Source: a virus
Strand: one strand, 5' to 3'
Virus record (IMG/VR): IMGVR_UViG_3300033072_000542
Length of the DNA stretch: 64,000 nucleotides
Shown: positions 3,001-50,407 of the stretch, in pieces
How the letters are laid out: every line of letters starts with the position of its first letter
Position numbering within the stretch: the first letter of the stretch is position 1
Notes under the pieces: model-generated
The model's input: only the letters and a program-made list of their open reading frames with translations
Databases searched by the model: none
What the model was told of the DNA's origin: nothing
Made by a program: the position numbers and the translations under genes

Positions 3001-4121
3001 TATCTAATGTACCACGAACAGAATCCAATACTACCGAACTCTCATAGTTGGTAGGCAAATCATAATCCGCAACATTCGCCACGGCTCTTGCACGGTCAAT
3101 TTCAATTGTTGTAGGTGCAATAGTCTCAAACTCATAACCACCAACATAGGCTTTACCTGGATCCAAAACAACATTAAACTTGCCGTTAGCAGAATCACCT
3201 TCTTCTAGGGAAATTACGAATGGATCAATTGTGTAATTGCCAGATTCGTCATATGTGCGGCGAGCCAATGTTTTTTCAATTTCACTATAAACAGCATAAT
3301 CAATTTCTTTTGTTTTAACATCCTCAACGATACGAATAATCTCAAAGAATGATGATGTGTCAACAGAATCTAATGTTCTCTTAGATAATGTAGTTTCAAT
3401 TTGGAAACGATTTGCACCAGGCGCTTGATAGTTGAATGCGTCCTGTGCTGGATCCAACAAAGACGTATCATCAATTTCATCAATGATTTTTTCTGTAAAT
3501 TCAATACCAATCTTGTATGATGGTTTAGAGTTGACGGTTGAAGAACCATAACCAACACGATAGAATAATTCTACAACCAAGAATTGTGGTACCACTTTGA
3601 CGAATTGTCCTTTGAAGTAGTATACACCTTCCTGCAAACTTGCAACAAAAGAACCACCAACTGCGTTAGTAGTTTTCAATTGTGCAAAAATATTTTGACC
3701 TCTGATTTTAATTTCATCAGATTCTGCGAATACATCACCACTCAAATACTTGACAATCAATATAGGATTAGCAGTTGTTGTATCAACAGCAATAACCTTA
3801 GCACGAACATTCTTTGTGGAATTGTATGTAACGATTGTTTTATTCAAAAAATCTGAAACAACAATATCAGTATTGTTATATTGACTTTCCAAAACAATAT
3901 AGTTGGCTTTTCTGTCTAAAGAAATCTTACCACCAATGATTGGACTACCACTTTTGAAAATATGGTTACCAAACTTTTCGATTTGATTAGCGAGGATTGT
4001 TTGTAGTTGTGTTAACTCACGTGCTTGAACCGAATAACCAGGACGGAACAAAACACGCATGAAGTTTTTATCTTCATCAAAGTCATCGTAGTATGGGTCG
4101 TAATTGAAAAGAGTTGTCATT
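1..4121 (-). CDS. Large virion structural protein (>1370 aa, 3' end outside window), baseplate/tail-fibre class
   Basis: Manual reverse-complement translation from ATG at 4119-4121 (RBS GAGGAATAA upstream) gives an uninterrupted frame MTTLFNYDPYYDDFDEDKNF... across the whole region. The listed plus-strand ORFs here are shadow frames. Position at the end of the baseplate operon. Confidence 0.6.
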
Positions 4122-4130
4122 TATTCCTCG

Positions 4131-26168: not shown

Positions 26169-26194
26169 GTTTTCTCCTGTGTTGTGTATGTGTA

Positions 26195-26488
26195 AATGGT
26201 GAGTTATTCTGTTACGAGGAAACTCACCGAAACCCTAGTCAGCGTTTAGGCTGCCAATGCGAACTTTTCATCGTTTGCGTTTACTTTATTTAGTTTTTAT
26301 ATCTACTCTGATAAGTTGTCCACTTCTTTACTCTTTGCCCTGTCGAAACCAAGTGCATCCCCATCAGAAACACATCAGAGGTCTTTTTACAAAATACTCC
26401 CAGTCCAATGTGTTTTTGGTGGAGATGGGGGGATTCGAACCCCCGTCCAGAACACCTTTCGAGTTGCTTCATACAACCATATTTTTAT
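26195..26488 (-). ncRNA. ssrA: Two-piece (circularly permuted) tmRNA (ssrA)-like gene
   Basis: Acceptor piece ...GGACGGGGGTTCGAATCCCCCCATCTCCACCA occupies about 26418-26480. A self-complementary spacer follows. The coding piece starts GGGGATGCACTTGGTTTCGACAGGG at 26362, with G3-U70 and a GGGGAUG/CAUCUCC acceptor pairing. The tag frame GCA AAC GAT GAA AAG TTC GCA TTG GCA GCC TAA (ANDEKFALAA) is at 26246-26278. A GGTGAGTT...AACTCACC hairpin follows. Confidence 0.7.
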
Positions 26489-26713
26489 TTATTCAATCAC
26501 AATCTCATTCTCATCACAAGAGGTCATTTCACCATCACAATAAATGCTATACTTAAAACCACCATCAGGAAATGGTGTATCTTTTGTCCATGAAGGAACA
26601 TACATGATAACACTATTTGTTAGCCAAAACTTATCTTCAGATTCAAACACTTTCCATTTGAACTTGCTTGTGCCATTCTTATGATCCACATTATAGCGAA
26701 TGTAATATCTCAT
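26489..26713 (-). CDS. Hypothetical protein
   Basis: 74 aa ORF. Confidence 0.3.
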   Translation of the reverse strand: MRYYIRYNVDHKNGTSKFKWKVFESEDKFWLTNSVIMYVPSWTKDTPFPDGGFKYSIYCDGEMTSCDENEIVIE

Positions 26714-26714: not shown

Positions 26715-27914
26715 TCAAGTCTCTAGATGGTAAAATTTACTCATCGTCAATGGTAATCCAGTAAAACCTCTGACACCAAGTTTTATCAAGTCCGTAAATC
26801 TACTATAATATTCCCTACTGCCATGTTTCCATATTGACGATACATTTTTGTCCATATCATTTATCCACCAATTATCTAGCGGACGATTACCCAAAAAGCC
26901 TTCTTTAGGTGAAATGATACTGGGCTTCCAGTCAGGATATACAGTTTCATGGAAGTATTTGTATTTCAGATTTCCAGGATATTTCTTACTCTCACAATAA
27001 ACATGTGGACGGTGTCCCATCTTAAAGTATGGCTCTCTAGGCTCAAAATAATCAGGACTGTTTAGTTTTTCAACATATCTTTTTAGGATATGTGCTTGTT
27101 TAATAATTAACTTCACATCATCAGGACTGTGATAAAAAAACTCCAAGAAGTTTCTACCTTTCAAATCTGGATCAGCCATAATCATGCCTGCGGTATCACA
27201 CGAAAATATATCATTGAATCCCATAGAATATTTGTTTTCGTGTAATCTTAATGTTGGCTTATCGGTCCCATAAATTACACAAACTTTTTTACCATCGAGA
27301 ATCATATCCCAAATATGTTTGGTGTGCTTTATCCAGAAACCTCGATAAAGTGGTGCTGAAGGAAAACTGTTTGCACCAAACAATATTTCATGCTCATCAC
27401 GTTTACGAAACTCTTTCCATATGGTATTCAACATTTCAACTTCATCCAAAATCGTAATCTTCATTTTGGATGATCCATATCTTTTCAAAATTTCATCAAC
27501 TTGTGGCTTAACGTTGTGGAAATAATCTAAATTGTGGCATGTTCCTTCCACAACACCTGTTGATTTGTAACTATTGAAATTTACAATCTCATCCAATTTG
27601 ATATTGTATTTTAGGAATGTGTCAAGAATATTTTGACTATCTGGTCCACCACTATATGATAGAACCAGATAATCGTTGGTATCTCTGAGTTGTTGTGCTC
27701 TACGGCGGTAGAATTCTCCTATACCAACTTCAGGTTCAGGTTCAGTTGTCCAATCATACGTGTCAAATATGTCATCATTGAAATAAAATTTCAATTTCTG
27801 ACCAGTTCGCCTAGATTCAAATAATGCAAACTGTTTGTGTAAGAAACGTTGATTTCCAACTTCATAATGTCCAAGTCTATCAACAGAATTGACAGACATA
27901 TCAGTAATAATCAT
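26715..27914 (-). CDS. PP-loop ATP pyrophosphatase family protein (paralog 1)
   Basis: SGGxDS motif LSYSGGPDSQNILDTF. 399 aa. Confidence 0.5.
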   Translation of the reverse strand: MIITDMSVNSVDRLGHYEVGNQRFLHKQFALFESRRTGQKLKFYFNDDIFDTYDWTTEPEPEVGIGEFYRRRAQQLRDTNDYLVLSYSGGPDSQNILDTFLKYNIKLDEIVNFNSYKSTGVVEGTCHNLDYFHNVKPQVDEILKRYGSSKMKITILDEVEMLNTIWKEFRKRDEHEILFGANSFPSAPLYRGFWIKHTKHIWDMILDGKKVCVIYGTDKPTLRLHENKYSMGFNDIFSCDTAGMIMADPDLKGRNFLEFFYHSPDDVKLIIKQAHILKRYVEKLNSPDYFEPREPYFKMGHRPHVYCESKKYPGNLKYKYFHETVYPDWKPSIISPKEGFLGNRPLDNWWINDMDKNVSSIWKHGSREYYSRFTDLIKLGVRGFTGLPLTMSKFYHLET

Positions 27915-28786
27915 TCTGAAATAATTTCTTTGATATAGTTTTCAGGTGATGTGATGGATTGTTTTCCGAAATGGATGTCCATCTTCTTTCTAACTTCTAG
28001 CGATTCATTGCTACGCATATATTCTGCGATTGCTTTACGAAGTTTTTCAACCTCTTGTGGATTAGCAGACTTGTTTGCGAATAGAAAAATGTTATTAAAA
28101 TATCTGTAGTCATTAGGAACAGATAGTCCTAGTTCTCTTAATGTGGGAACATTCGGTAGATAATGTGAACGTTGTGGAGCAAATACTGCTAAACCTACCA
28201 ACTTATTCTCTTCAACATACTGATTGATAACGTTTGGAATGCTAACACCAATATTCAAGTGTCCACCAATCGCATCGGTTGTAATCATAGCACCACTTTT
28301 ATATGGAACTTCCACCACGTTACTTGAGACACTATACTTCTCTGCCATTTGGCGAATCAACTTTCCATTATTACTAGCAGTTGGAATTCCATAAGATAAA
28401 TTATTCGTCTTAGCATAGTCTAATGCTTCTTTGAAATTCTTATAGTTTGGATTTGGTCTAGAGAAAATGACGCCAGGAATTGTTCCCATGTATGCGACAG
28501 GAATCATATCTGTCAATGGATTAGTTGGCCAATTCTGAACTGGACCAAACAACAATACCATCTTATCAGTTTTATTCTCTGCCAAAGCAGCCGCACCAAT
28601 AACACCACCAGCACCAGGCTTCAAATCATATACAACACCATCCAACTGTTTGTTGAAGAATGGTTGCATCTCCAAAGCATACTTGTGAATCAAACCACCA
28701 GAGCCAACAGGCAAAATAACGGTAGTAGGTTCAGAACAAACGTTGAATGTCATAAAAACACTCAACAACATCATCTTAAATTTCAT
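27911..28786 (-). CDS. Periplasmic substrate-binding protein, TctC/Bug-like (putative)
   Basis: 291 aa. N-terminal signal peptide MKFKMMLLSVFMTFNVCS. Size and composition resemble tripartite tricarboxylate transporter binding proteins. Confidence 0.35.
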   Translation of the reverse strand: MKFKMMLLSVFMTFNVCSEPTTVILPVGSGGLIHKYALEMQPFFNKQLDGVVYDLKPGAGGVIGAAALAENKTDKMVLLFGPVQNWPTNPLTDMIPVAYMGTIPGVIFSRPNPNYKNFKEALDYAKTNNLSYGIPTASNNGKLIRQMAEKYSVSSNVVEVPYKSGAMITTDAIGGHLNIGVSIPNVINQYVEENKLVGLAVFAPQRSHYLPNVPTLRELGLSVPNDYRYFNNIFLFANKSANPQEVEKLRKAIAEYMRSNESLEVRKKMDIHFGKQSITSPENYIKEIISE

Positions 28787-30063
28787 TTTATATAATCCTT
28801 TAATAAATCAACAGCGTCAGGAAATGTTTTCTTCCAATCTGTGCCACGAATACTATCTAGTTTGTCTAAAAAAGACACATGATTTTCTATCATCATAACA
28901 CATTCTTCATGCGATTGTGTGCCGATATGTGATTCTAGATAATTACATATAAATTTTTTCCAACCATCAGGAAGATTCGATTCTTGATAAACACGAATAA
29001 CTTGTTGTTTCTGTTCATCAGGAATATATTTCATATCCATGTGAACAGGCGACATTAATGTCCTGAATGAATATTTGTCGTAACCAAGTTTCGAAAAGTG
29101 TTCATAGATTCTTATTGGTGCATATATGTTGTATATACCGACACATGATGAAATGTGTCTGATACCAAAACCTCTCTCTTGTATTTTATTCATGTTGGTA
29201 GTTAGTGTCTCGAAATTACCACCAAAACGAATTAAATTATATCTATCACCAATGTCATCACAACTTACTGATAGAACAATCTGTTTGAACTGCTTCAATT
29301 TATCTAAAATTTTGTCATTAATTACAGATAAGTTTGTGTCATATTCCAGTATAATATGTTTAGCGAGATCCGCTTCGATTAATTTATCCAATAAAATATT
29401 GTGGCCTTTAATAATAAAAGGTTCACCGCCCGTGATATACAAATGTCGTATTCTATGTTTTATCGTTTCGAATTGTTCCCACCATCTAGGTGAATCGTGC
29501 CAATCTAATCTTGCGCCACGATTTTCCTTTTCTATCGTGGCACCATAAATTATTTTCTCATCTTCATACCATTGATTACTATATTTCGAATTGCACATTG
29601 TGCATTTCATGTTACACACATTGGTAAATCTCAAATCTAAACTGATAGGTGTTTCATTTAATGAACCATCTTCCGTCAGATAATCTTTAACGTTATTCAG
29701 ATTGATGGCACCATCAACATCAGGTAACTGAACAAACGACCTGAATATGCGTAGAGAGTGTGCAGTTCCACCATTTCTTGAACTAACATCTTCACGTTTC
29801 CAACATATACCACACATTGGATGTTTTTCGTTTCTAGATTGTGCTAGACGTATTTGTTTGAACTTGTCACCATTTATTGCATCGAGAATACTATGTGTCA
29901 TAAGATTCATAATATTTCCTTCAGAATCCAATAATGTAGTATAATCTTTATTGCTAGAAGAACCATGTATTCCTGCATTGAAGCAACAAATTTTATAATC
30001 GCCAGCCGCATTTATCTGTAGACCAGACCACGGCAAAATACAAAACGTTTCTTTACTAAACAT
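28783..30063 (-). CDS. Radical SAM enzyme
   Basis: CNMKCTMC (CxxxCxxC) and SAM-binding ITGGEPF motifs. Additional N-terminal Cys cluster. Confidence 0.55.
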   Translation of the reverse strand: MFSKETFCILPWSGLQINAAGDYKICCFNAGIHGSSSNKDYTTLLDSEGNIMNLMTHSILDAINGDKFKQIRLAQSRNEKHPMCGICWKREDVSSRNGGTAHSLRIFRSFVQLPDVDGAINLNNVKDYLTEDGSLNETPISLDLRFTNVCNMKCTMCNSKYSNQWYEDEKIIYGATIEKENRGARLDWHDSPRWWEQFETIKHRIRHLYITGGEPFIIKGHNILLDKLIEADLAKHIILEYDTNLSVINDKILDKLKQFKQIVLSVSCDDIGDRYNLIRFGGNFETLTTNMNKIQERGFGIRHISSCVGIYNIYAPIRIYEHFSKLGYDKYSFRTLMSPVHMDMKYIPDEQKQQVIRVYQESNLPDGWKKFICNYLESHIGTQSHEECVMMIENHVSFLDKLDSIRGTDWKKTFPDAVDLLKDYIK

Positions 30064-30413
30064 TATTCAACGTGATGTGTAAAAGTTGATTCTGCGCCCA
30101 ACTCAGCCAATTTATTTTTCAATAAATCCATTCTCGTTTTAACAATCTCATGTTGATTAGCACCCTCAAGCACAGTTCTGGCAGCCTCCAAATTTTCCAC
30201 CGTATCAAATTCAAGTTTAACAACTAGAGTGTCGCCAACCTCTTCTTGTGTGGTACCAACAAAACCTGTTAGTGATTGAACATAATCAAAATAAGGATTT
30301 AGTATTGTTTCTATCTCATTTTGTGTAAAATATTGTGAATAATTCTCTGGAAAAATCCACGGCTTAATTCCCATAGGATTATTATTTGTGATTATTTTTA
30401 CAATTTTCGGCAT
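30063..30413 (-). CDS. Hypothetical protein
   Basis: 116 aa ORF within the enzyme cluster. Confidence 0.35.
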   Translation of the reverse strand: MPKIVKIITNNNPMGIKPWIFPENYSQYFTQNEIETILNPYFDYVQSLTGFVGTTQEEVGDTLVVKLEFDTVENLEAARTVLEGANQHEIVKTRMDLLKNKLAELGAESTFTHHVE

Positions 30414-30422
30414 TTCGTTTCC

Positions 30423-31268
30423 TTAAAATTTATATTTATCGAACAAAGTGAAGAATTGTTCCTTGGTCCAAACTTCTCCAGTCTTTTTGAGTGGCACTCT
30501 ATTGGATGCCATTAATGCAATCTCTGCTATTGTTTCTGGTGAATAGACTGGACGAAGTTTATCACGATATTCAATCTGATAAATTTTCTCTTTATGTCTG
30601 TTCCATGTGATATTATCCCTAGGCATCATGGCGTAGGCAATCTCTGGTGTATACAGAAAGAAGTCTATGTTTTTGCAACCAACAAAACAATAATCGGTAT
30701 AGAAGTCCCATTCATTTGAAATGAGATATACATCATCGGTTATCATATCATCACCATCACCCATGAAATGGTTTCCTGTGATTAGTGTTCCACCCAATTT
30801 CTCTACCATCTCAGCGACAATCAAAACCTGTGTTGCATTATAACCAACACCATTAAACTTTCTATAAATGTGTTCATCATAGAAGTCGATGAGTTGGCGC
30901 TCACTTATTTCAATTATAGTTGGTGTAATTCCTAGTTCGTCACATACTGCATATGCATAATCATTCTCGATTTGCTTACCACAGACAACAATAATAGGAT
31001 GTATATCTATACCATTCCTATGGAAGCAACGTAGAACAAAATCTGAATCCATACCACCACTTAGTGCAAGATATAGTTTGTCGTAGTCTTTTGCTATCTC
31101 ACAACAAGTATAATCTGCGGCTTCCTGATATGACATTTCTTTGAATGGATATAAATTTATACCCATAGAAAAATCTGCGGCTTTATTGGTGAATCTGTCT
31201 GCCAGATTCGTATACAACCATTTATTCTTTGTTAACATTTTTTCTATACCACTCACCCAAGTGAACAC
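30423..31268 (-). CDS. PP-loop ATP pyrophosphatase family protein (paralog 2)
   Basis: LALSGGMDSDFVLRCF SGGxDS motif. 281 aa. Confidence 0.5.
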   Translation of the reverse strand: MFTWVSGIEKMLTKNKWLYTNLADRFTNKAADFSMGINLYPFKEMSYQEAADYTCCEIAKDYDKLYLALSGGMDSDFVLRCFHRNGIDIHPIIVVCGKQIENDYAYAVCDELGITPTIIEISERQLIDFYDEHIYRKFNGVGYNATQVLIVAEMVEKLGGTLITGNHFMGDGDDMITDDVYLISNEWDFYTDYCFVGCKNIDFFLYTPEIAYAMMPRDNITWNRHKEKIYQIEYRDKLRPVYSPETIAEIALMASNRVPLKKTGEVWTKEQFFTLFDKYKF

Positions 31269-32061
31269 AATGATCCTCGTAGCGGTTCATCGCTTTCATC
31301 AATGGAAAATATTTACCCTTTTGCAATTCAGCAGTCGCAACATCTTCTCGGAATACTTCCTCACACGTTTCAAAAATTCTGCGTGTGGTAGCATCGACCG
31401 ATGGATCATAATAGAACTGTGATATCCATTTGAAGCCAAATTCTGTATTGATATCGTTCGGTATCACATTATTGACCATAACACATCCGGGTGAATATTC
31501 AATAAACAAGAATGGGAAAACATACAACCACCAGCCAGTAGGATGTGATTGTAGAATCCATCCATCTCCCTGATCCATCTGTATGTCTTCCAATTTAACT
31601 TGGCGTGACAGGAATGGATGAATACCATCCTCATATACGTGAAGTAAATCTGCCTCAGCATCAAGCAACCACATCCAACTGCCTTCACTTGAGCCTTCCA
31701 GTGAGTGGTGATACACCAAAGATTTTTCACTAGCCAAATCATCAACCCATTTATGGTCAGGCTCAACAAAATCTTTGAAAATCATTCCACTGCGACCAGT
31801 TTCTACCTTACCACAATGCAACTTCTTATCATTGTTTATTGGATTACCATCTTTGTCCCATCTGAAATTGTGGAACTTACACCAAACATCTTGCACCACT
31901 TTACCTGGTGTCTCCAATGGATACATTCTGTGTGGACAGAAACGGTGCATCAAACTGACGCCATCATCCTTTTTGTTTAAGATAAAATCTGGTAAAACCA
32001 AATTGCCCTTCTCAAGTGCTGATATGTGTGCGAAAAATTTTGGTGTTCTAATCTTAAACAT
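31222..32061 (-). CDS. Rieske [2Fe-2S] domain protein (oxygenase-like)
   Basis: CPH-x16-CKFH Rieske motif (CPHRMYPL...CKFHNF). Confidence 0.5.
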   Translation of the reverse strand: MFKIRTPKFFAHISALEKGNLVLPDFILNKKDDGVSLMHRFCPHRMYPLETPGKVVQDVWCKFHNFRWDKDGNPINNDKKLHCGKVETGRSGMIFKDFVEPDHKWVDDLASEKSLVYHHSLEGSSEGSWMWLLDAEADLLHVYEDGIHPFLSRQVKLEDIQMDQGDGWILQSHPTGWWLYVFPFLFIEYSPGCVMVNNVIPNDINTEFGFKWISQFYYDPSVDATTRRIFETCEEVFREDVATAELQKGKYFPLMKAMNRYEDHCVHLGEWYRKNVNKE

Positions 32062-32063
32062 AA

Positions 32064-33152
32064 TTACTTTCTACGACCATTATAAACTTCATAAAAACGT
32101 GAGAATGTGGTATCATCAATTTCGTAACCACAACGTCTTTTCATATTTTCTATTCCAGCGGAATGAAACTTATACAACTTCGATTCTTTATCTGCCAACA
32201 TATATTGGTCTCGCAAACTGACTGTTTTGTTATTGCTTTTTCCAGACTTGAATGCTAATGGTTTTCTCAATTTATAAACTATGTCATGCACACTTTTATT
32301 ACCTACTGTAGCACCGACATCTTTATCATATCCGAAATATTTGTGAATCAGATATTCTTTGTTCAATTCATGTAGTTGTTTTAACAAGACTTCGGGATAT
32401 GTTGGATCCCAATAAAAATTAATTCTATCACAATAATCTGCTTTACCCAATTCACCATAACTGTATGCTGATGCATCAGTAAACTTGAAACCATTTATAG
32501 CAAATCTTCCACCCATCATAGGTTGACCAGAATCATCGTTACCATGGAACAGATATGGTTTATCTCTACCCATAACTATTGCAACTTTTTTATTTTTGTA
32601 TTCTTCAGGAACAACATATTTCTCAATGTCACGCCAATACCAGTGATGTGGACTGAACCAAGTGCCAACATAATCAATCCAATTTTCACCATATTGACTA
32701 ATGCTCAAATTCATCGGATCATCAATTATGTCGGAGTAATCACATATCTGAAAGATTGATTCCAATCCAAGTTCTTTAATGTATGGAAAAACATTATGAT
32801 ATAGTTCACCATTATGATTTTCATCTACACCATATGCAGAATCTTTTTTCAGAGCACCAACAGTAATTATTTTATCAATCTTAATGTTGTTGAAATGGAA
32901 CGTTTCGAGAATTGTGGTTGAGTCATAACCACCACTATATGCTAAAATAACATAATCATAACTATCACGAATCCTCTGTGCTTGTTGTTTGTAGTAATAC
33001 TCCAAAGATTCTGGCGGTTCTATATGCCAATCTATTTTGGAGTAAACATCATCATAGTAATAAAAGAATATTTCTTCACCTGTGTGATGTTTGTGAGCAC
33101 AAGCGTCAATTTTAGATGTGAAAGTTTTTCCACTCTTCGTATAATAATGCAT
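32064..33152 (-). CDS. PP-loop ATP pyrophosphatase family protein (paralog 3)
   Basis: LAYSGGYDSTTILETF SGGxDS motif. 362 aa. Confidence 0.5.
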   Translation of the reverse strand: MHYYTKSGKTFTSKIDACAHKHHTGEEIFFYYYDDVYSKIDWHIEPPESLEYYYKQQAQRIRDSYDYVILAYSGGYDSTTILETFHFNNIKIDKIITVGALKKDSAYGVDENHNGELYHNVFPYIKELGLESIFQICDYSDIIDDPMNLSISQYGENWIDYVGTWFSPHHWYWRDIEKYVVPEEYKNKKVAIVMGRDKPYLFHGNDDSGQPMMGGRFAINGFKFTDASAYSYGELGKADYCDRINFYWDPTYPEVLLKQLHELNKEYLIHKYFGYDKDVGATVGNKSVHDIVYKLRKPLAFKSGKSNNKTVSLRDQYMLADKESKLYKFHSAGIENMKRRCGYEIDDTTFSRFYEVYNGRRK

Positions 33153-33167: not shown

Positions 33168-34247
33168 TTATAAAGGATTACAGTTGATAAAATAAACTGC
33201 AGGTGATTTTAATATGTAGTAGTATAGTCCCGATGATGAATCATATGCGGCTGCATACCAACTTGCACCGTTTTGCAAAGACAATCTTTGTGTTGAACCA
33301 GCGTGCGCTAAAATACATGTTCCATCACCACCTTTGGCACCATTACTGAATGCACCACCACCATATGAATCACCACCTGCACCACCGCCACCATATCCAT
33401 CTGTGCCAGGATATGATATACTTGTGCCGCCATGTCCACCGCCACCGCCAGCACCGCCAGCGGCACCGCCATTATAGTCACCACCACCTCCGCCGCCGCC
33501 CCCAAAGCGACCTACCCATGATGTGCCAAAATATATGTTTTGTCCATCACCACCATATCCATTGGTGTTTGTTGCATCATCAACACCGCCGCCACCGCCA
33601 CCGCCTGTGCTATTTCCTGATGCACCAGGACTGTGATAACCGCCACCTGCGTTTGCTGGACCACTGGAACCACTAACTCTAGGATATCCACTATCACCAC
33701 CACGATATGTGTTTGTTTCTTGAGCAGTTCCTGATCCTGTCCAATAATAGCGTGATAATCCTCTTTGACCACCAGTCGCCGCAGGTGAATATGAGCCATA
33801 TGTGAATGATGTTTGAATACCATTTCCCGCTCTCAAATAATATTGTGCGGGCTGACCGTATCCACCACCGGTATCACCATAAACACCTGCCGCACCACCA
33901 GCGCCTACTGTTGTTGAAGCGGAGGTTCCAATTTGCCAATCTATCAATCCTTGGTATATACCACCACCACCGCCACCGCCACCGCCACCGCCAACGTTGT
34001 CTGCGGTACCTACTGCACCACCACCTCCTCCACCAACGATGAGGAAATATACGGGAATAGTTGGTGCGGTTTTGCGTTTTCCATAAAAATTACTAATTGA
34101 TATTGAAGATCCTGTTGAAGGAAATGTTCCTGTAGTTCCAGCGTCCGTCCACCAAGTTTGTCCTCTATACGAACTTAAACTTGTGCCATATCCGAACTCT
34201 GCATTTATCTCGGACATTGATAGTGATCCGGAAGATTTGATTGTCAT
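33168..34247 (-). CDS. Glycine-rich repetitive protein
   Basis: 359 aa with poly-Gly runs (GGGGGGGGGGG). Encoded by a GC-rich ggtggcggtgg repeat DNA that differs from the local composition. Confidence 0.45.
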   Translation of the reverse strand: MTIKSSGSLSMSEINAEFGYGTSLSSYRGQTWWTDAGTTGTFPSTGSSISISNFYGKRKTAPTIPVYFLIVGGGGGGAVGTADNVGGGGGGGGGGGIYQGLIDWQIGTSASTTVGAGGAAGVYGDTGGGYGQPAQYYLRAGNGIQTSFTYGSYSPAATGGQRGLSRYYWTGSGTAQETNTYRGGDSGYPRVSGSSGPANAGGGYHSPGASGNSTGGGGGGGVDDATNTNGYGGDGQNIYFGTSWVGRFGGGGGGGGDYNGGAAGGAGGGGGHGGTSISYPGTDGYGGGGAGGDSYGGGAFSNGAKGGDGTCILAHAGSTQRLSLQNGASWYAAAYDSSSGLYYYILKSPAVYFINCNPL

Positions 34248-39382: not shown

Positions 39383-39964
39383 TTACAAGATTAAATCTGC
39401 TACACCTAGTTTAACAAGTTCTTCGGCGGACATCCAAACGTCACTAGGCGATAACAGTTTGGTTTTTACTTCACGTGCAGACATGCCCGTGGCTTCCTGA
39501 AGAATTTTAGACATACGGTTATTTGTTAATTCGGCTTCTTTTGTGAAAGATTTTAAGTCGTGATGTTTACCTTCGTAGGTATCAGAATACTGGTGACACA
39601 TTATACCACAGTTTCTTGTGATAAAGCGGTAATGTTTAGTGCCTGATGCGAAAATTAAAAATGCAGCCGACATAACTGCACCAACACCAAATGTATGGAT
39701 AGGCTTATTACTGAGGCGCATAATATCAATCAAGCCAAGTGCTTGGTATAAATCACCACCTTGTGAATTGATATAGAGTTTAAGTGGTTCATCGCCTGGT
39801 ATAGAATTTTCATAAATGATCCACTTGATAGCGGCATTAATATTTTCCTCTTCAATATCACCAGTCAAAAAGAATGTGTGATTTTTTAAGAGGACAACGT
39901 CAAAGATTTCCTGTAGTGGAACAGGCAAATCAGCGATATCGTTTTCTTTTCTTTTCCCAGCCAT
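39383..39964 (-). CDS. clpP: ClpP-like serine protease subunit
   Basis: INSQGGDLYQALGLIDIMR and GVGAVMSAAFLIFASG resemble ClpP motifs. Probable start MAGKRKEND. Confidence 0.55.
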   Translation of the reverse strand: MAGKRKENDIADLPVPLQEIFDVVLLKNHTFFLTGDIEEENINAAIKWIIYENSIPGDEPLKLYINSQGGDLYQALGLIDIMRLSNKPIHTFGVGAVMSAAFLIFASGTKHYRFITRNCGIMCHQYSDTYEGKHHDLKSFTKEAELTNNRMSKILQEATGMSAREVKTKLLSPSDVWMSAEELVKLGVADLIL

Positions 39965-40886
39965 AGGCGGATTGGACGATAGAGGCAATGTCATGTTTAG
40001 GTTTGAAATTCAATAAACGTTTTGCTTTAGATATGTCAGCAACAAGAATGTCAGGATCACCTTCACGGGCCGCTTTGATTGTATAATCGACCTGCTTACA
40101 AGTTACTTTCTTGACTGTTTGTATAACTTCTAAAACTGTATATCCTACACCATTTCCTAAATTGATAACTTCGGACGAATTGCCTGCATCAAGATATTTC
40201 ATGGCTTCAATGTTAGCATCAACTACATCCTCCACATGGACATAATCACGCTCGGCAGTTCCATCAACTGTCCTATAATTGTCACCATATACCTCAAAAG
40301 TATTTAGATTTTGGAGTATTCTGGGAATCAGGTGTGTCTCTGGATAATGGTCTTCTCCAAGTTCACCATCAGAATCAGCACCAGCAAGATTAAAGAATCG
40401 GAAGATAATATAATTCAAACCGGAATCTTCAATTGCATTTTCGGCAGCCATTTTACTGTTGGCGTATGGATTGTTGTTTGTTGTGCATTCATCTTCAGGT
40501 AGAGGTAGTGAACCTGGGAAATAAACACCAGCAGTGGATGAGAAAATGATATTCTTGATATCATATTTTTTCATAGCATTAATCACATTAATGGTACCTG
40601 CGGTGTTGTTGAACCAAAACTCTGTTGGATGTTTAACTGATTCACCAACTTCGATTCTACCAGCAAAGTGAAATACAGTATCAACTTTGTAATTGACGAA
40701 TACAGATTCTAATGCGTTTTTATCTGTAACATCGGATTGCCACCAGCGGTCCCAATAATGGTGTCTTGAATGTTGTAAGTCAAGACCAATTACAAAGTGT
40801 CCTTCTTTCTTTAGGCGTTTGCAGAGGTGCGAACCGAGATAGCCTGCGGCACCTGTGACCAAGATAATGGACTGTTTGTTTTCCAT
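39930..40886 (-). CDS. NAD-dependent epimerase/dehydratase (UDP-glucose 4-epimerase-like)
   Basis: VTGAAGYLGSH Rossmann motif and YANSK catalytic YxxxK. Confidence 0.65.
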   Translation of the reverse strand: MENKQSIILVTGAAGYLGSHLCKRLKKEGHFVIGLDLQHSRHHYWDRWWQSDVTDKNALESVFVNYKVDTVFHFAGRIEVGESVKHPTEFWFNNTAGTINVINAMKKYDIKNIIFSSTAGVYFPGSLPLPEDECTTNNNPYANSKMAAENAIEDSGLNYIIFRFFNLAGADSDGELGEDHYPETHLIPRILQNLNTFEVYGDNYRTVDGTAERDYVHVEDVVDANIEAMKYLDAGNSSEVINLGNGVGYTVLEVIQTVKKVTCKQVDYTIKAAREGDPDILVADISKAKRLLNFKPKHDIASIVQSAYGWEKKRKRYR

Positions 40887-41578
40887 GGAAATTTACCGTG
40901 TAGTGTTAGATTGATATGATTACCCGATTCGAAAAAATCTGCCTTGACAGAATTCTCATTACCATCTAGTCGATAGTTGACTGTGTGATGGTTGGTGCAT
41001 TCATATTTTGGGAAGTGTGTTTTTAGTGCATTAAAAAATTGTCTATCAGCGCCCCATTGACCATACCATGCGTGTCCAATACGAACAGCAATATCACGCT
41101 TAATAGCAAAACAGGACGTGTCAATATGGAAGACATGCTTATCAAAGAAGACTGGCCACTTACCAAGACTTTCACAATTGTCTTCACAAAGGAATTCACC
41201 ATTAACATCAACAATTTTTCGTAGTGAATAAACCCAGTCATAGTTTCCTGCCTTCATTGTATCAACAAGAGTTTGGATGTGATTAGGATCAATCCAATTA
41301 TCCTCATCAAGATAGATGATAATGTCAGCGTTCACTAAAAATGAACAGGCCGCATATACACGGTGACCATACCAGCCTTTACCGACATTATCCTCTAAAT
41401 CAACGAAACGCAATTTACTTGCGCCCATAACTTGAGTTTTTACATTTGAACGATACTCTTTACCATCAATAAACACATAATGCAAAACATCGGGATAAGT
41501 TTGCTTATCTACCGAATCAATACATTTAGTTAGGTGCTTACTTCCGATTGTCGGAGTTACTACCGCTACCTTCATCAT
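40811..41578 (-). CDS. Family 2 glycosyltransferase (GT-A)
   Basis: VAVVTPTIG... and YLDEDN DxD motif. Confidence 0.55.
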   Translation of the reverse strand: MMKVAVVTPTIGSKHLTKCIDSVDKQTYPDVLHYVFIDGKEYRSNVKTQVMGASKLRFVDLEDNVGKGWYGHRVYAACSFLVNADIIIYLDEDNWIDPNHIQTLVDTMKAGNYDWVYSLRKIVDVNGEFLCEDNCESLGKWPVFFDKHVFHIDTSCFAIKRDIAVRIGHAWYGQWGADRQFFNALKTHFPKYECTNHHTVNYRLDGNENSVKADFFESGNHINLTLHGKFPWKTNSPLSWSQVPQAISVRTSANA

Positions 41579-41748
41579 CTTCTTTCATAACAATTTTAGC
41601 CGAACCAATTGTGCCTGGCATTTCCATCAATCGCTCATCACTCTGTGGTTTCAAATCACGTTGAAAAATTGCATCCCAACGAGCATCATATTCCGCTTGT
41701 GAAACACTAAACGGTCTTGGCTTACTACCTTTACCACCGTCACCCATT

Positions 41749-42183
41749 TTAATTCTCCAAATTCAAATCAGGGAAGGCTTCTTTAATTAACTTCGGTGTC
41801 AAAAATGGAATCTTCATTTCCTTTCTGATACAACGAACCATCAAGTCGGCTTCATCTTTATGGAGACCTTCCAGAACACTTGCCAACTTCATAGATTGTT
41901 TTTTGCCACCATAACCGGCAGGTCTACGTGGGTGTCCAACAATATACAAATACATTTTTGGAACTTCATTGTGCAAATAGAGCACATTCAATCCAGCAGG
42001 ATCAAGTGAAGGCTTATACTCAGGAATCTCAACATCAAAAACGATAGTTGGATTAAAAGCGGCCATCAAAAACTCTTGCACGTTTTTATCTCCATGTTTA
42101 CGCAACACTTCAATTTTATCCGCACGTTTCTCTGCCTTTTCGAATTCGGCAAAAATTTCGTGATACATTAACTTAAAACTCAT
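41749..42183 (-). CDS. Hypothetical protein
   Basis: ORF 41749-42219. The likely start is an internal ATG just past the rnh stop. Confidence 0.3.
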   Translation of the reverse strand: MSFKLMYHEIFAEFEKAEKRADKIEVLRKHGDKNVQEFLMAAFNPTIVFDVEIPEYKPSLDPAGLNVLYLHNEVPKMYLYIVGHPRRPAGYGGKKQSMKLASVLEGLHKDEADLMVRCIRKEMKIPFLTPKLIKEAFPDLNLEN

Positions 42184-42997
42184 CAATAACTTCCAGTAAA
42201 TTTTTAAGGCGATTAGCAATCATGTAGTTCATAAATTTTTGCTTATTCGCAGGTTTCAATTCTATGTATGTATCTATAATGTTTTTTGACACGGAACCAG
42301 GAATATTCGACAAATCAATCAATTGTTTGTTGCGGTCATAATTGCGCTGGTGTTTTTCTTTGTTTGCCTCAAACTCACGCAAGAATTTTTCGGTGATTGG
42401 TTTTTGACGAATACTATCAACAAACGAATTGTCAGGAGACAACACATTTGGAATACCGTCACCAGAATCACCACGAATAATCAACTCATGCAATTGTTGC
42501 ACAGGATTATCTGTAGTGATATTTTTCTTCAAACTTGGTGAGTATTGTTTGACGTTTGGATTAGTTTGCAACTGGACAAAATCTTTGTCGCTGGACAGAA
42601 TCATAACTGGTTCATTTGGACCATATGCTTGTGTCAATACGCCAATGATATCGTCAGCCTCAGCACCATACACATCAATGACTTTGTATGGCGAATTTTC
42701 TTTCAACTCTTCACGAATTTTACTAAGACATTCAAAGATGGCATTCCAATCATGTCCAGAAGAATCACGATTTTTCTTACGATTGGATTTGTAGTTGGGA
42801 AATACTTCACGGCGCCAGTAATGTTTACTGTCACACGCAATAATTACTTCACCATATTCTCGGAACTTTCGCACGTTTGCACGAATGGTATTGAGAACCA
42901 TGTGACGAACCAGTGCTTCGTCCACTGGCGTTTTTGAGGAACCGATTTGTTCCATAAGGTTGGCAATGACAACCTGATTAAAGTCAAATATTAGCAT
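42173..42997 (-). CDS. rnh: RNase H / 5'-3' flap exonuclease (T4 rnh)
   Basis: ILSSDKDFVQLQTNPNVKQYSP matches T4 RNase H ISSDGDFTQLHKYPNVKQWSP. The C-terminal ...LLEVIDEF matches T4 ...LTNSINEF. Confidence 0.8.
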   Translation of the reverse strand: MLIFDFNQVVIANLMEQIGSSKTPVDEALVRHMVLNTIRANVRKFREYGEVIIACDSKHYWRREVFPNYKSNRKKNRDSSGHDWNAIFECLSKIREELKENSPYKVIDVYGAEADDIIGVLTQAYGPNEPVMILSSDKDFVQLQTNPNVKQYSPSLKKNITTDNPVQQLHELIIRGDSGDGIPNVLSPDNSFVDSIRQKPITEKFLREFEANKEKHQRNYDRNKQLIDLSNIPGSVSKNIIDTYIELKPANKQKFMNYMIANRLKNLLEVIDEF

Positions 42998-43037
42998 AGT
43001 TCACATTATACAAGATTAAGAATAAAAAGTGTGGTAA

Positions 43038-44084
43038 TTATTTCACCACACGCAGAAGGATGGTATCAGCATTAATGCGACCACTCAGAGGACTTTCTTT
43101 GGATGCAATCTCACCCAAAAGATTTTTCAATACAACTTTACCACCTTTCATAACGGTAGGAATCGTTGCCTCTGGTTTGCGTATAATCTTATGAATGGAT
43201 TTTGATTCACTATAATTCAACAATGAAGAATTCTTTACAGACAATCCGCCTGCATCCTCAGCATGATATACGCCAAGTTTACGAGTTTTCACATTAAACA
43301 CCCACAACTGTAACGCACCAATAATATCTCTCGGTGCCACAGACTTCAACTTATATGTATCGTCCTCTTTACAGAAATTAAGTTTGGTTACCAGTTGGTC
43401 TGGTGTTTTTTGTTTACGCTTTGGCTTCTTACGATTCACCTTTGCTTCACCAGCAATCTTCATAGCATCAGTAATAACAGCATCACAAAACGCTACCAAT
43501 TTTTTCAATTGTGGTTTAGTGAAGTTGGAATAACCTTCACGTAAATCCTTATCATCAGTATTCAATACATCATCAAATTCAATACGGCGTTTTTTGAAAT
43601 ACTCAATCAATTTTTGGGCATGAACACCTTTTGCACGGTCATGCATAACAGACATTGGTGCTGGCATAGTCTTAAAATCACTCAGCACATAATCGTCCAG
43701 AGCCGCTTCCAAGTCCACAGCAATCTCACCAACTTTCTCTTTTAGTCGGTCTTGAATGGATACAGTAGGTGTGGCATCAACAGTTACTGGCTCTTCAACT
43801 TGAGTTACCAAAACTTTTTTCATATGAGTTTTAATGAACTTATCACCATACTCACCAACATTGTTGCCATTTGTAACCAAACGACACAACCAGCCTAGAG
43901 TAAGAATGCTCTGGCTGGTATCAACACGACCTGTAAATTTATTTTTCTTTGCATAATCTTGGATGTATTTGATAGCATCTTTGTTTTCCATATTCTGGTG
44001 ATACCAGTTTAAGGCATTCACCAATTGGATGCTAGTCGCTACACCCTCAATGCGTGGTTCTTCAATTCTTGGAAGCCTTGCCAT
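43038..44084 (-). CDS. Hypothetical protein
   Basis: 348 aa ORF. Confidence 0.35.
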   Translation of the reverse strand: MARLPRIEEPRIEGVATSIQLVNALNWYHQNMENKDAIKYIQDYAKKNKFTGRVDTSQSILTLGWLCRLVTNGNNVGEYGDKFIKTHMKKVLVTQVEEPVTVDATPTVSIQDRLKEKVGEIAVDLEAALDDYVLSDFKTMPAPMSVMHDRAKGVHAQKLIEYFKKRRIEFDDVLNTDDKDLREGYSNFTKPQLKKLVAFCDAVITDAMKIAGEAKVNRKKPKRKQKTPDQLVTKLNFCKEDDTYKLKSVAPRDIIGALQLWVFNVKTRKLGVYHAEDAGGLSVKNSSLLNYSESKSIHKIIRKPEATIPTVMKGGKVVLKNLLGEIASKESPLSGRINADTILLRVVK

Positions 44085-44355
44085 TCTTTAATTCCTCAAA
44101 ACTATAATTACGATATGTAGTCAAAACACGAATGCCGTCAGGCATTTCTTTGTATGGTGCGGCTAATGCTCTAGCCGTATCAAGATAGTTGGTAGAATTC
44201 AAAACAACACAACCATCAAACGCTTCTTTCAATTTTTCTTTGTTAATAAACATGGTCATATCATCAGCATAACCATCAAACAAACTATCATAGTCATTTA
44301 AGACCGTGGCACGATAACCATCACTGGTCATCAGCACATAAACTCCTTGTGGCAT
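44062..44355 (-). CDS. Hypothetical protein
   Basis: 97 aa ORF. Confidence 0.3.
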   Translation of the reverse strand: MPQGVYVLMTSDGYRATVLNDYDSLFDGYADDMTMFINKEKLKEAFDGCVVLNSTNYLDTARALAAPYKEMPDGIRVLTTYRNYSFEELKNGKASKN

Positions 44356-44476
44356 TTTACAAAATTACTTCCTGGATTACACTATCGGGACGGGCTAACT
44401 GGTAAACCTCAGCACAAGCCCGTATATTAAACATACCTACAATCTTACCATTATCTATCAAAACGAATTTTTTCAT

Positions 44477-44902
44477 TTACTTAACTTCAAAAGGTTTGTT
44501 CCAGCGACCGATATCAACACTTACATAATATGCGGTATCAAAATAGTCGGTCATCGCATCCGAATTATCGTAGTAGTTTGCAGTATACATCGCCTTAACG
44601 ATTTTGTCAACGATATCCAGAGCCCGACCTGAAAAGTGTTCCTTATACCAGTAAGGATTAACTTGAACGTGATCCTTAGCATCTTGATATGGACCGTAAC
44701 GATTCGCACCAGGTGCAACTCGGCAAACATTATTCATATTAGCAATCAAATCAATTGGAGCGGATTTGATTGTGCAACAAATCGACATATGATTACGAAC
44801 ACTTAAGGTGTATTTTACGCCAGTGCCTTTCAAAGCCTTATCCAAGTTTGCTTTGATAACCGCTTTTTTCTCTTGATTCATATAAGCCATTTTGCAACTC
44901 AC
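44477..44902 (-). CDS. Hypothetical protein
   Basis: 141 aa ORF. Confidence 0.3.
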   Translation of the reverse strand: MSCKMAYMNQEKKAVIKANLDKALKGTGVKYTLSVRNHMSICCTIKSAPIDLIANMNNVCRVAPGANRYGPYQDAKDHVQVNPYWYKEHFSGRALDIVDKIVKAMYTANYYDNSDAMTDYFDTAYYVSVDIGRWNKPFEVK

Positions 44903-44946
44903 TTTCTATCAAACATGTATTAATTATACCAGGATTCTGGAACTTG

Positions 44947-45150
44947 TCAAGCGAATACTTGACTAATTTGGTCAGTTTCCGCCAGAATACGGGTGCGAAA
45001 CTCACCGAAAACCACGATTGGAGCATCTAATACTATAGTATTACTTACTTTGCCACCGTATTTGACACGGCTTTCGACCACTCGGCCAATGTAAGGAATC
45101 TCGCCAAGATACAAGCCAGACACTTTTTTACCCTCTAAATTCCAAGACAT
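44947..45150 (-). CDS. Hypothetical protein
   Basis: 67 aa. RBS GAGGAG. Early promoter upstream. Confidence 0.4.
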   Translation of the reverse strand: MSWNLEGKKVSGLYLGEIPYIGRVVESRVKYGGKVSNTIVLDAPIVVFGEFRTRILAETDQISQVFA

Positions 45151-45177
45151 AGTAACTCCTCATCAATCTATGGAATT

Positions 45178-45205
45178 AGTATAACAGGACTGGTAAGAAT
45201 GTCAA
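45178..45205 (-). promoter_or_regulatory. Sigma70-type early promoter (TTGACA-N16-TATACT)
   Basis: Reverse complement cacTTGACAttcttaccagtcctgtTATACTaattccatagattgatgaggagttactATG. Confidence 0.55.
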
Positions 45206-45225
45206 GTGGTGTTGCAAAAAAACAA

Positions 45226-45933
45226 CTAAATTTTTGCTAGGAACTCGGCCTCTGGAATCCTCGTTTTAGTGCTTTTGCTTCCCAAAACGACCACGATACG
45301 GCGACCGACATCCGTATCCAGCATCATCACAATACATCCACCTGCGGCATTAATGTAGCCAGTCTTACTTACGATAAATTCATGGCGTTGGCCGATGATT
45401 GGATTTGTGTTATTGAAAATCAACCACTTCTTCTTCACTTTGATTTTCACTTGGCTCATTTTACTGGACTCTACAATCAAAGGATAATTTTGTGCTTCAC
45501 GCACAAGTGTTACCAATTCTTCCGCTGTGCTAACATTAAACACACCAAGACCTGTCGAATCAGAAAATTTTGTTTCACTCAAACCTAATGCATATGCTTT
45601 GCGATTCATCATATGAATGCATTTAGTGTAACCTTGTGTGTAGAATTCACATAACGTTTTAGCGGCACGATTATCTGAATGAACTAATGCAAGTTGAATT
45701 AATTCTTTTCTTGTGTATAGACCAATCTTTTCATCCAAATCTTGTTTAGCATCTAAGACAACCATTGCAGTCATCAGTTTGGTGATACTTGCTATTGAAC
45801 GAACTTGCTTTGTGTTTTCACTTTGAATAATTCTACCATCGCCGTCAGCGACAAGCCAACTCTGTGCAGTAATCTTGGCTTCGGATGAAAAAACTGCCAT
45901 TGATAAGATGGCAGTCAATAAAAGTTTAATCAT
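45226..45933 (-). CDS. Secreted D-alanyl-D-alanine carboxypeptidase/endopeptidase (PBP5/S11-like)
   Basis: Signal peptide. SITK (SxxK), SDN and KTG motifs in the canonical order. Confidence 0.6.
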   Translation of the reverse strand: MIKLLLTAILSMAVFSSEAKITAQSWLVADGDGRIIQSENTKQVRSIASITKLMTAMVVLDAKQDLDEKIGLYTRKELIQLALVHSDNRAAKTLCEFYTQGYTKCIHMMNRKAYALGLSETKFSDSTGLGVFNVSTAEELVTLVREAQNYPLIVESSKMSQVKIKVKKKWLIFNNTNPIIGQRHEFIVSKTGYINAAGGCIVMMLDTDVGRRIVVVLGSKSTKTRIPEAEFLAKI

Positions 45934-50312: not shown

Positions 50313-50387
50313 TTGGTGGCTCTAATGGGAATTGAACCCATATCAATACGTTTTAGAGGCGTTTGCATTACCATCATGCTCTAGAGC
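50313..50387 (-). tRNA. tRNA with CUCUAAA anticodon loop (putative anticodon CTA, amber-suppressor-like)
   Basis: Acceptor GGCTCTA/TAGAGCC. D-arm GCAT-GATGGTA-ATGC. T-arm ATGGGTTCAATTCCCAT. The anticodon loop CTCTAAA sits on a weak or bulged stem. Confidence 0.45.
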
Positions 50388-50407
50388 CATACATGTATAT
50401 ATGTATT

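Follow-up and report, generated by a model that had tools for sequence, protein, structure and literature searches.

A seven-gene accessory block in an uncultured T4-like phage combines two conserved gene modules and may process a small carboxylic acid

The window analysed here, a stretch of 64,000 nucleotides from the IMG/VR virus record IMGVR_UViG_3300033072_000542, belongs to a T4-like phage and carries at positions 26715-33152, on the minus strand, seven co-oriented genes with mostly overlapping ends. These genes encode two related PP-loop synthetases (PPA and PPC), a further PP-loop protein (PPB), a Rieske oxygenase, a protein of 116 amino acids (aa), a radical S-adenosylmethionine (SAM) enzyme and a TctC/Bug-family binding protein. 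The best reading of the block is a single operon of accessory genes specific to uncultured phages, composed of two conserved two-gene modules and acting on a small metabolite rather than on a polymer. The same families are neighbours in numerous divergent phage contigs, with varied order and orientation, which supports a functional link between the genes, and the conserved gene order supports a coherent enzyme pathway outside the T4 core. We put at about one half the probability that the block encodes a pathway peculiar to phages whose substrate, a small carboxylic acid, would be captured by TctC, adenylated and amidated by two kinds of PP-loop enzyme, and tailored by oxidative or radical chemistry.

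An initial annotation of the window had described the block as one co-oriented apparent operon, not part of the T4 core and located between a transfer-messenger RNA (tmRNA) and a glycine-rich gene. Its contents were given as three PP-loop paralogs, a radical SAM enzyme with CxxxCxxC, GGE and an extra cysteine cluster, a Rieske protein with CPH...CKFH, and a TctC/Bug-like protein with a signal peptide. All of these features were recovered on the minus strand where they had been placed, as open reading frames (ORFs), motifs and profile matches, and the catalytic motifs of the block enzymes are intact; only the paralogy of the PP-loop proteins had to be narrowed, from three of them to two. Neighbouring genes either overlap by 1-4 nt, suggesting translational coupling, or are separated by gaps of 2-15 nt. 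The start of PPC overlaps the stop of TctC by 4 nt, and no convincing internal terminator was found across the seven genes. Profile searches did not scatter the proteins among unrelated housekeeping families; the families recognized are non-housekeeping ones that recur side by side elsewhere.

Gene neighbourhoods were compared in about 190 related viral loci, 84 of them seeded with the PPA/PPC family, 29 with the Rieske protein and 80 with a QueE-like protein. In the 84 PPA/PPC loci ORFs were called and clustered, adjacency was defined as lying within 300 nt, and binomial p-values were calculated. A TctC-like gene was present in 38 of these loci, and 36 of its 41 copies lay within 300 nt of a PPA/PPC-family gene, compared to a baseline of 10.7% for any gene (p = 6e-30). 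The adjacency was seen in 16 of 52 PP-loop clusters formed at 60% identity; upstream and downstream positions of TctC were equally frequent, and its strand was sometimes the opposite one. The second module pairs PPB with the Rieske gene. A PPB-family gene adjoins the Rieske gene in 25 of the 29 Rieske-seeded loci, and 27 of 43 PPB genes adjoin a Rieske gene compared to a baseline of 9.1% (p = 4e-18); this pairing occurs in 14 of 20 PPB clusters formed at 50% identity and in several orientations. Both modules are found together in the window and in L001, L008-13, L092, L094, L100, L103, L107, L109 and L112 (numbers preceded by L denote the related loci).

It is distinctly unlikely that the genes have no common pathway and are independent auxiliary metabolic genes, juxtaposed by chance in a hyperplastic accessory region, with each pair or gene serving a different host process. 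Both pairwise adjacencies are far beyond chance and persist through rearrangement and down to 20-30% sequence identity, the modules co-occur in at least nine independent arrangements, the genes overlap by 1-4 nt, and all four enzyme classes plausibly act on carboxylic acids. Chance would account for the finding of the modules apart (L003, L089, L008-13), for the variable slot beside the block (a glycine-rich gene in the window, a tryptophan halogenase and others in L001), and for the NadE, methyltransferase and sugar-enzyme genes interleaved with FolE, QueD and QueE in related phages, in a region that is generally rich in tRNA and accessory genes.

Two or three tandem PP-loop paralogs often share one PPA/PPC locus, the range being two to six per locus. 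Subsets of these loci also hold DctP/TRAP-type binding proteins, a Burkholderiales-type porin, pairs of short-chain dehydrogenase/reductase and beta-keto-acid-cleavage genes, and DUF2061 membrane proteins; all but the last of these count as further neighbours related to carboxylates. PP-loop genes often abut tRNA-Ile(UAU), tRNA-Arg(UCU) or tmRNA, and a tRNA or tmRNA lies within 300 nt in 30 of the 84 loci. This proximity was rejected as specific evidence for tRNA modification, since it applies to 26% of the PP-loop genes and to 25% of the other genes in the same loci. Likewise, a link to NAD salvage (TctC and PPC stand beside NMNAT-Nudix and NAMPT genes in L003) was not adopted because it is confined to one lineage.

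PPC (26715..27914, minus strand, 399 aa) and PPA (32064..33152, minus strand, 362 aa) are true paralogs, with 31% identity over 213 aa (E = 2e-23), and PPA matches the family profile, A1, at 9.6e-98. The SGGxDS PP-loop is present in PPC (SGGPDS, aa 88-93, nt 27636-27653), in PPA (SGGYDS, aa 73-78, nt 32919-32936) and in PPB, and together with a fold that agrees with many PP-loop enzymes it places the three proteins in the PP-loop ATP pyrophosphatase superfamily. Residues S88, G89, G90 and D92 are invariant in family A1, as are W55, E58 and P59 nearer the N-terminus. Neither PPA nor PPC matched any family in Pfam, PHROGs or NCBIfam, neither matched Asn_synthase (PF00733) even at E<=0.1, and a search of PDB sequences with the PPC family profile returned nothing even at E=10. 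An AlphaFold model for the family, based on 27 homologs, was confident (predicted local distance difference test score 90). The modelled PPA/PPC fold is that of a synthetase domain and is closest to the glutaminase-less domains of asparagine synthetase and beta-lactam synthetase; the top structural matches all adenylate a carboxylate and then transfer it to a nitrogen nucleophile. In BFVD the nearest viral models came from uncultured Caudovirales and were uncharacterized; entries named 'asparagine synthase' ranked next. An N-terminal class II (N-terminal nucleophile, Ntn) glutaminase domain was not found in PPA or PPC, which have only an N-terminal extension of about 60 residues with no GATase profile match.

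The family is large and its distribution is narrow. A word-indexed search recovered about 200 PPA/PPC homologs, all metagenomic and all labelled 'hypothetical', and an exhaustive profile search gave 1,796 clusters at 50% identity. The family was matched by at least 599 IMG/VR stretches, compared to three in 185,579 GTDB species representatives; all three are contigs of metagenome-assembled genomes (MAGs) and are probably phage DNA binned with them. No PPC homolog was detected by tblastn in 50,697 cultured-phage records. With three MAG contigs in GTDB and none in cultured phages, the family is effectively virus-only and uncultured. The median isoelectric points of the two PP-loop families, 5.5 and 6.9, are acidic to neutral, a range seen more typically in enzymes of small molecules than in those that bind nucleic acids.

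The gene overlapping PPC encodes TctC (27911..28786, minus strand, 291 aa), a true member of the Bug family (PF03401, 82.3 bits against a cut-off of 27, E = 5.5e-23). It bears an N-terminal signal peptide (the N-terminus reads MKFKMMLLSVFMTFNVC), and signal-like N-termini, judged by eye rather than with a predictor, were present in the window protein and in every phage homolog inspected (about 30). The best match among PDB sequences was BugE (2dvz, 1e-16), and others were TctC (7ndr), Bug27 and a terephthalate-binding protein; the 2dvz chain is BugE solved with glutamate bound. In the window protein the canonical GGxxD ligand loop has diverged to GGLIH. An exported TctC points to uptake of a free carboxylate. 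The window contains no candidate TctA or TctB, as none of its ORFs of at least 120 aa is predicted to have more than two transmembrane segments, and TctC would therefore need the TctAB of the host. No TctC homolog was detected by tblastn in the cultured-phage records.

Two further kinds of protein were seen near the PP-loop genes of other loci. DctP/TRAP-type homologs (PF03480, 3.5e-51) in L017, L019, L020, L024 (1205-2161), L034, L037, L048, L056, L067 and L076 start at the mature N-terminus without a signal peptide, unlike the TctC homologs, all of which bear one; six of the DctP/TRAP-type genes adjoin PP-loop genes. A porin-like outer-membrane protein with a signal peptide, recognized by reading the sequence and not by a profile, lies near TctC and PP-loop genes in L037, L067-69, L071 and L081 (14053-14934).

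Taken by themselves, these two families could serve nutrient augmentation: TctC would boost the uptake of aspartate or glutamate, as bound by BugD and BugE, and PPA/PPC would be ammonia-dependent asparagine (or glutamine) synthetases supplying an asparagine-rich phage proteome. The best PDB match of TctC (2dvz), the similarity of the PPC fold to asparagine synthetase B-type domains and the asparagine content of the phage proteins (6.4%) are consistent with this scheme. It is nevertheless very unlikely, given that PPA and PPC fail to match the Asn_synthase profile even at E=0.1 and that the family is nearly absent from cells (three MAG contigs among the 185,579 species representatives). Moreover, asparagine synthesis would need neither two to six paralogs in a locus nor so close an association with Rieske, PPB and radical SAM genes.

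In the second module, the Rieske gene (31222..32061, minus strand) encodes a non-haem-iron oxygenase alpha-type protein of 279 aa that matches PF00355 with 30.7 bits against a cut-off of 20.3. Its [2Fe-2S] motif, CPH-x17-CKFH, spans aa 42-64 (nt 31870-31938), and the ligands C42, H44, C61 and H64 are invariant. The catalytic domain is represented by a 2-His-1-carboxylate iron site, D138-x2-H141-x6-H148 (nt 31618-31650), which is also invariant. Homologs number in the hundreds, are metagenomic and share 60-97% identity; tblastn found none in cultured phages. No reductase or ferredoxin partner was found among the seven cluster genes or the flanking genes, and the redox partners would have to come from the host.

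PPB (30423..31268, minus strand) has 281 aa when read from its GTG start, but its homologs suggest that translation begins instead at the ATG at 31238, for a length of 271 aa. The PP-loop is SGGMDS (aa 70-75, nt 31044-31061), and S70, G71, G72 and S75 are invariant in its family, A3. While all three PP-loop proteins had been taken for paralogs, the likeness of PPB to PPA and PPC is limited to about 50 residues around the PP-loop (51 columns in hhalign); judged from its sequence, PPB represents a separate PP-loop family and no paralog of the other two. Its N-terminal region gave sub-threshold matches to QueC, Asn_synthase, LarE and argG_rel, with 15.8 bits against a cut-off of 21 for Asn_synthase and scores below both QueC cut-offs (PF06508, 16.5 against 22 bits; TIGR00364, 14.1 against 150.3). 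The C-terminal zinc motif of QueC, CxxCxxC, is absent from PPB, which has no CxxC at all and has its cysteines at positions 55, 56, 81, 96, 109, 194 and 198. PHROG returned a weak QueC-like label for PPB and a weak QueE-like label for the radical SAM protein. Profile A3 also matched NadE/NMN synthetase at 1e-6 to 2e-5 in the P-loop region. PPB was accordingly considered as a divergent NadE, from the 1e-6 match and the mutually exclusive occurrence of the two, and this was rejected because the hhalign alignment covers only 65 columns around the P-loop.

The next gene encodes the 116-aa acidic protein, of unknown fold (ORF at 30063..30413, minus strand), which has no family match in Pfam, PHROGs or NCBIfam. 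Its homologs come after PPB in L001, L008-13, L092 and L094.

Elsewhere the Rieske gene keeps varied company. Multiple fatty-acid-desaturase-like membrane di-iron proteins occur within a few kb of the Rieske/PPB pair in L088, L090 and L096-L115 (for example L108 2682-3416), with 45 copies in 17 of the 29 loci, and TauD, RimK and B12-radical-SAM genes accompany them around Rieske. A protein of about 120 aa that resembles S-adenosylmethionine decarboxylase by eye adjoins Rieske in L101 (10834-11190) and L103 (8767-9129) and lies within about 6 kb of it in L104/105 (4078-4440). Small MazG-like proteins, also recognized by eye, flank the Rieske genes in L095, L101 and L102.

The radical SAM enzyme (28783..30063, minus strand, 426 aa) matches N_Twi_rSAM (NF033640) over its full length, with 296.5 bits against a cut-off of 170 (3.2e-88), and also matches PF04055 (53.6 bits) and, on residues 8-88, SPASM (PF13186), consistent with an N-terminal twitch/SPASM domain. 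Cysteines C150, C154 and C157 lie in CNMKCTMC (aa 150-157, nt 29593-29616), GGEP is found at aa 212-215, and cysteines 8, 26, 27, 84 and 87 form the N-terminal auxiliary cluster. Only distant matches (22-26% identity) were found in cultured phages. Close homologs (E ~1e-112) adjoin PPA/PPC-family genes in L055/57/59/70, in some cases with one small DUF2061 gene between, and in L074 a more distant radical SAM gene abuts a PP-loop gene. We know of no reaction assigned to the NF033640 family. According to a marine virome paper (PMC5332604), as many as 12 radical SAM genes, their role unknown, are present in T4-like genomes.

A conserved element of about 50 codons (MM.N.F.HS.KQQQ..LG..AYWS...N.DR.PE...EG.GYA) was noticed in eight loci, in most of them after PP-loop or TctC genes: L003 (17265-17465, about 6 kb away), L011 (2731-2892), L023 (11171-11356), L038, L039, L045, L049 and L058. 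The element (c29) has no counterpart in the window or in Rfam, and its codon-position pattern (0.34/0.31/0.41) would allow either a peptide or an RNA.

The cyclases that form lasso peptides are homologous to AsnB, and radical SAM enzymes with SPASM domains typically mature peptides. The block could thus be imagined to mature a ribosomally synthesized and post-translationally modified peptide (RiPP), with an AsnB-like cyclase or amidase and the SPASM/twitch enzyme modifying a small phage-encoded peptide, which is akin to the modified-peptide alternative of the initial annotation. Weak NCBIfam matches of the radical SAM protein to MftC, SkfB and WgkB, and the 50-codon ORF after PP-loop genes in eight other loci, would agree with this. 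However, these matches span the generic core only, the ORF is missing from the window and ambiguous in its coding status, the 116-aa protein looks folded and not precursor-like, and profile searches of the block proteins (Pfam, PHROGs, NCBIfam) revealed neither a leader peptidase nor a RiPP recognition element. With no conserved precursor or peptidase in the window, the peptide alternative falls away as exceedingly improbable.

A lead to the scaffold came from loci in which the second module meets 7-deazapurine genes. In L095/99, L101, L102 and L110, Rieske and PPB genes are interleaved with genes for FolE (GTP cyclohydrolase I, 9e-40), a QueD-type synthase and a QueE-like radical SAM protein (up to 3e-14); the order in L110 is FolE, two small genes, three PPB genes, QueD, Rieske and QueE-like. 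The association of the PPB family with FolE/QueD/QueE extends to L117, L129/130, L148/150, L170, L171, L191 and L192, though not to the window, and PPB lies directly upstream of QueD in L095/99, L101, L110, L117, L148/150, L170, L171, L191 and L192. Seeding with the QueE-like protein added 80 loci, of which 39 contain FolE, 49 contain QueD and nine contain PPB upstream of QueD; the position is directly upstream in seven of these nine, and one small ORF intervenes in L129 and L130. L150 holds in addition a second Rieske gene, a methyltransferase, an AMP-binding enzyme and a gene of the YhhQ/Vut_1 family, which transports queuosine precursors. No protein joining a PP-loop to the QueC CxxCxxC was found in the FolE/QueD/QueE loci with PPB. 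Since PPB stands upstream of QueD and a QueC-type protein is missing from those loci, PPB is a candidate to act on 7-carboxy-7-deazaguanine (CDG) or 6-carboxytetrahydropterin (CPH4). Both compounds are heteroaromatic carboxylates, and an oxygenase with relatives among the salicylate and terephthalate enzymes would suit them. The foremost, still unproven candidate for the scaffold is a carboxylate of the deazapurine or pterin type. To our knowledge no Rieske oxygenase takes part in the described deazaguanine pathways, and our literature search found none linked with them.

In 12 of the 80 QueE-seeded loci a NadE gene (PF02540, 1e-43 to 1e-49) directly follows the QueE-like gene (for example L119 8332-9132, L123 10837-11661 and L188 10843-11595), never together with PPB. 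Unrelated accessory genes therefore do occur in these regions.

The same clusters bear on the hypermodification of a nucleotide, DNA or tRNA base, which the initial annotation had favoured. Here a new base, most plausibly a 7-deazaguanine derivative, would be inserted by a DpdA-type transglycosylase (in DNA) or by Tgt (in tRNA), or else the PP-loop enzymes would act on tRNA as TilS does. In several phage lineages PPB genes, some of them with Rieske, stand among FolE, QueD and QueE-like genes, YhhQ/Vut_1 is present in L150, PHROG gives weak QueC-like and QueE-like labels, and PP-loop genes lie in tRNA- and tmRNA-rich regions (within 300 nt in 30 of 84 loci). The 27 tRNAs of the phage include those for Asp, His and Tyr with GUN anticodons, and such tRNAs normally carry queuosine. 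In contrast, the window itself has no FolE, QueD or QueE-like gene, PPB lacks CxxCxxC and falls below the QueC cut-offs, tRNA proximity is no greater than for other genes (26% versus 25%), the PP-loop families are acidic to neutral, and an exported TctC has no place in the scheme. No DpdA/TGT-type gene turned up among the profile-scanned window proteins, a scan that included no DpdA-specific search and did not take in every ORF, with about 100 kb of the 163-kb genome lying outside the window. What survives of the original proposal is the nucleobase lead, through PPB in FolE-QueD-QueE clusters; nothing shows a DNA or tRNA target. Hypermodification as the purpose of the block carries some weight but is improbable on balance, and DNA or tRNA hypermodification is plausible only as a sub-case of a pathway for a small acid.

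The genes of the block, their motifs and folds, their confinement to viruses and the conservation of their adjacency are established; the chemical steps, substrate and product use of such a carboxylic-acid pathway are inferred. TctC would capture a carboxylate in the periplasm and hand it to the TctAB membrane transporter of the host. By the reaction expected from their fold, PPC and PPA would adenylate the carboxylate with ATP, releasing pyrophosphate, and the acyl-adenylate would react with ammonia or another amine to give an amide; as PPA and PPC have no glutaminase domain, the ammonia or other amine would be used directly. The Rieske oxygenase would hydroxylate or oxidize a scaffold with host reductants, and PPB would adenylate and amidate a carboxyl group of that scaffold. 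The twitch radical SAM enzyme and the 116-aa protein may have tailoring or accessory roles. As scaffold, the most specific candidate is a heteroaromatic acid from the 7-deazapurine/pterin route (CDG or CPH4), which in this phage would be supplied by the host. In its most specific form, a virus-exclusive pathway formed by both PP-loop families, the minimal Rieske oxygenase and the twitch radical SAM enzyme would turn such a carboxylate, of host or phage origin, into a new, QueC-independent derivative, amidated, hydroxylated and possibly joined to a carboxylate imported through TctC, for use as a DNA/tRNA base modification not known before or as an anti-defence metabolite; we regard this full scheme as fairly unlikely.

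Several observations weigh against the carboxylic-acid pathway. A binding protein that is exported cannot be in a complex with an enzyme of the cytoplasm, so that adjacency is the sole link between TctC and the synthetases, and the presence of two to six PP-loop paralogs per locus is left unexplained. Loss of the canonical GGxxD loop in the window TctC means that its ligand may be unusual. The modules are also separable: TctC and PPC stand alone in L003, Rieske stands alone in L089 and elsewhere lies amid fatty-acid-desaturase-like, TauD, RimK and B12-radical-SAM genes, and the radical SAM gene is missing in L008-13. Accessory-gene hot spots, as seen from NadE after the QueE-like gene in 12 loci and from tRNA genes lying equally near to other genes, mean that some neighbourhoods may be positional only. 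Finally, no FolE, QueD or QueE-like gene was found in the 64-kb window, and the PPBs adjacent to QueD are only 24-29% identical to the window PPB, making transfer of function risky.

The window was recognized as T4-like from gp32, gp59, baseplate genes and RNase H, and encodes, besides its 27 tRNAs, a tmRNA at 26191-26531 (minus strand; Rfam beta_tmRNA, 148.8 bits, and also the permuted tmRNA model; tag ANDEKFALAA). The betaproteobacterial, permuted type of this tmRNA suggests a betaproteobacterial host; Betaproteobacteria are rich in orphan Bug/TctC proteins. By megablast, neither the cluster nor the first 24 kb of the window had a close DNA relative in the 50,697 cultured-phage records. Literature searches on TctC/TRAP binding proteins in phages, on twitch radical SAM enzymes in phages and on Rieske with 7-deazaguanine found no description of the cluster or of its gene pairs.

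The block is bounded by the tmRNA on one side and by the glycine-rich gene on the other. Its downstream limit is a sigma-70 promoter with a 12/12 consensus match at 26718-26690 (minus strand), just past the PPC stop and ahead of the tmRNA. An ORF of 74 aa after PPC (26489-26713, minus strand) is doubtful as a gene because it overlaps this perfect promoter and the tmRNA. The glycine-rich protein (33168-34247, minus strand, 359 aa) has a weak PHROG match to tail-fibre assembly. Its slot is variable, being occupied in L001, an 85%-identical relative, by four other genes including a Trp-halogenase-like one, and in L008-13 by a gene for 243 aa.

Other features were noted further away. ARAGORN predicted a tRNA with anticodon CUA, labelled tRNA-Pyl and of the amber-suppressor type, at 50314-50388 (minus strand) within the 27-gene tRNA array, and a similar CUA tRNA is present in a related phage (L003 14559-14633). 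Upstream of the block, at 39383-45933 (minus strand), genes for a ClpP protease, an NAD-dependent sugar epimerase/dehydratase, a family-2 glycosyltransferase and a D-Ala-D-Ala carboxypeptidase are interspersed with T4 RNase H. One look past the window showed small early genes only.

The PPA/PPC family is a large, unannotated and almost purely viral enzyme family with no sequence relative in Pfam, NCBIfam, PHROG or the PDB. If the TctC-synthetase pairing is true, it would constitute a new phage auxiliary metabolism, in which the phage supplies a periplasmic receptor and a cytoplasmic trapping enzyme and borrows the membrane channel of the host. The presence of Rieske and PPB within the 7-deazapurine precursor clusters of other phages hints at an undescribed deazapurine branch, in an area with known roles in restriction evasion. 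The cluster also offers testable targets in its seven proteins, all soluble, and in a few candidate acids, and the gene set is common in freshwater phages of Betaproteobacteria-type hosts.

Compared to known systems, PPA and PPC share their fold with the synthetase domains of AsnB, beta-lactam synthetase, the carbapenam synthetase CarA and the hydroxyamidotransferase TsnB9. They differ from the AsnB family in being only 7-10% identical, in lacking a glutaminase domain and a Pfam Asn_synthase match, in having a conserved N-terminal segment of their own (W55, E58 and P59 invariant), and in being essentially virus-only. PPB resembles QueC, the enzyme of the FolE-QueD-QueE-QueC preQ0 pathway that serves, with DpdA, in 7-deazaguanine modification of phage DNA, as a small acidic PP-loop ATPase whose family is found upstream of QueD in FolE-QueD-QueE clusters, and the substrate of QueC is a heteroaromatic carboxylate, which fits the carboxylate theme. 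Unlike QueC, PPB scores below the QueC thresholds and lacks the zinc-binding CxxCxxC, and its window lacks FolE, QueD and QueE-like genes.

The phage Rieske protein (279 aa) is much shorter than the enzymes that it matches (343-447 aa), among them NagG (salicylate 5-hydroxylase), CntA (carnitine monooxygenase) and terephthalate dioxygenase, and is 12-16% identical to them. It also differs from them in that genes for a beta subunit, reductase or ferredoxin are lacking in its vicinity. Hundreds of phage contigs share the protein at 60-70% conservation, and cultured phages do not have it. The radical SAM enzyme has the same CxxxCxxC and N-terminal auxiliary cysteine cluster as other members of NF033640, and differs in being linked to PP-loop synthetase genes.

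The phage TctC is like the orphan Bug/TctC proteins (BugD, BugE, Bug27 and the terephthalate-binding protein) in combining the Pfam TctC domain with a signal peptide, in lacking cognate membrane genes and in having a metabolic enzyme gene beside it. Unlike the bacterial orphans, it resides in a lytic-type T4-like phage, has a diverged ligand loop and is coupled to a virus-specific PP-loop synthetase. A phage-encoded periplasmic binding protein has a precedent in the PstS of cyanophages and, by analogy with it, the phage TctC would plug into a transporter of the host.

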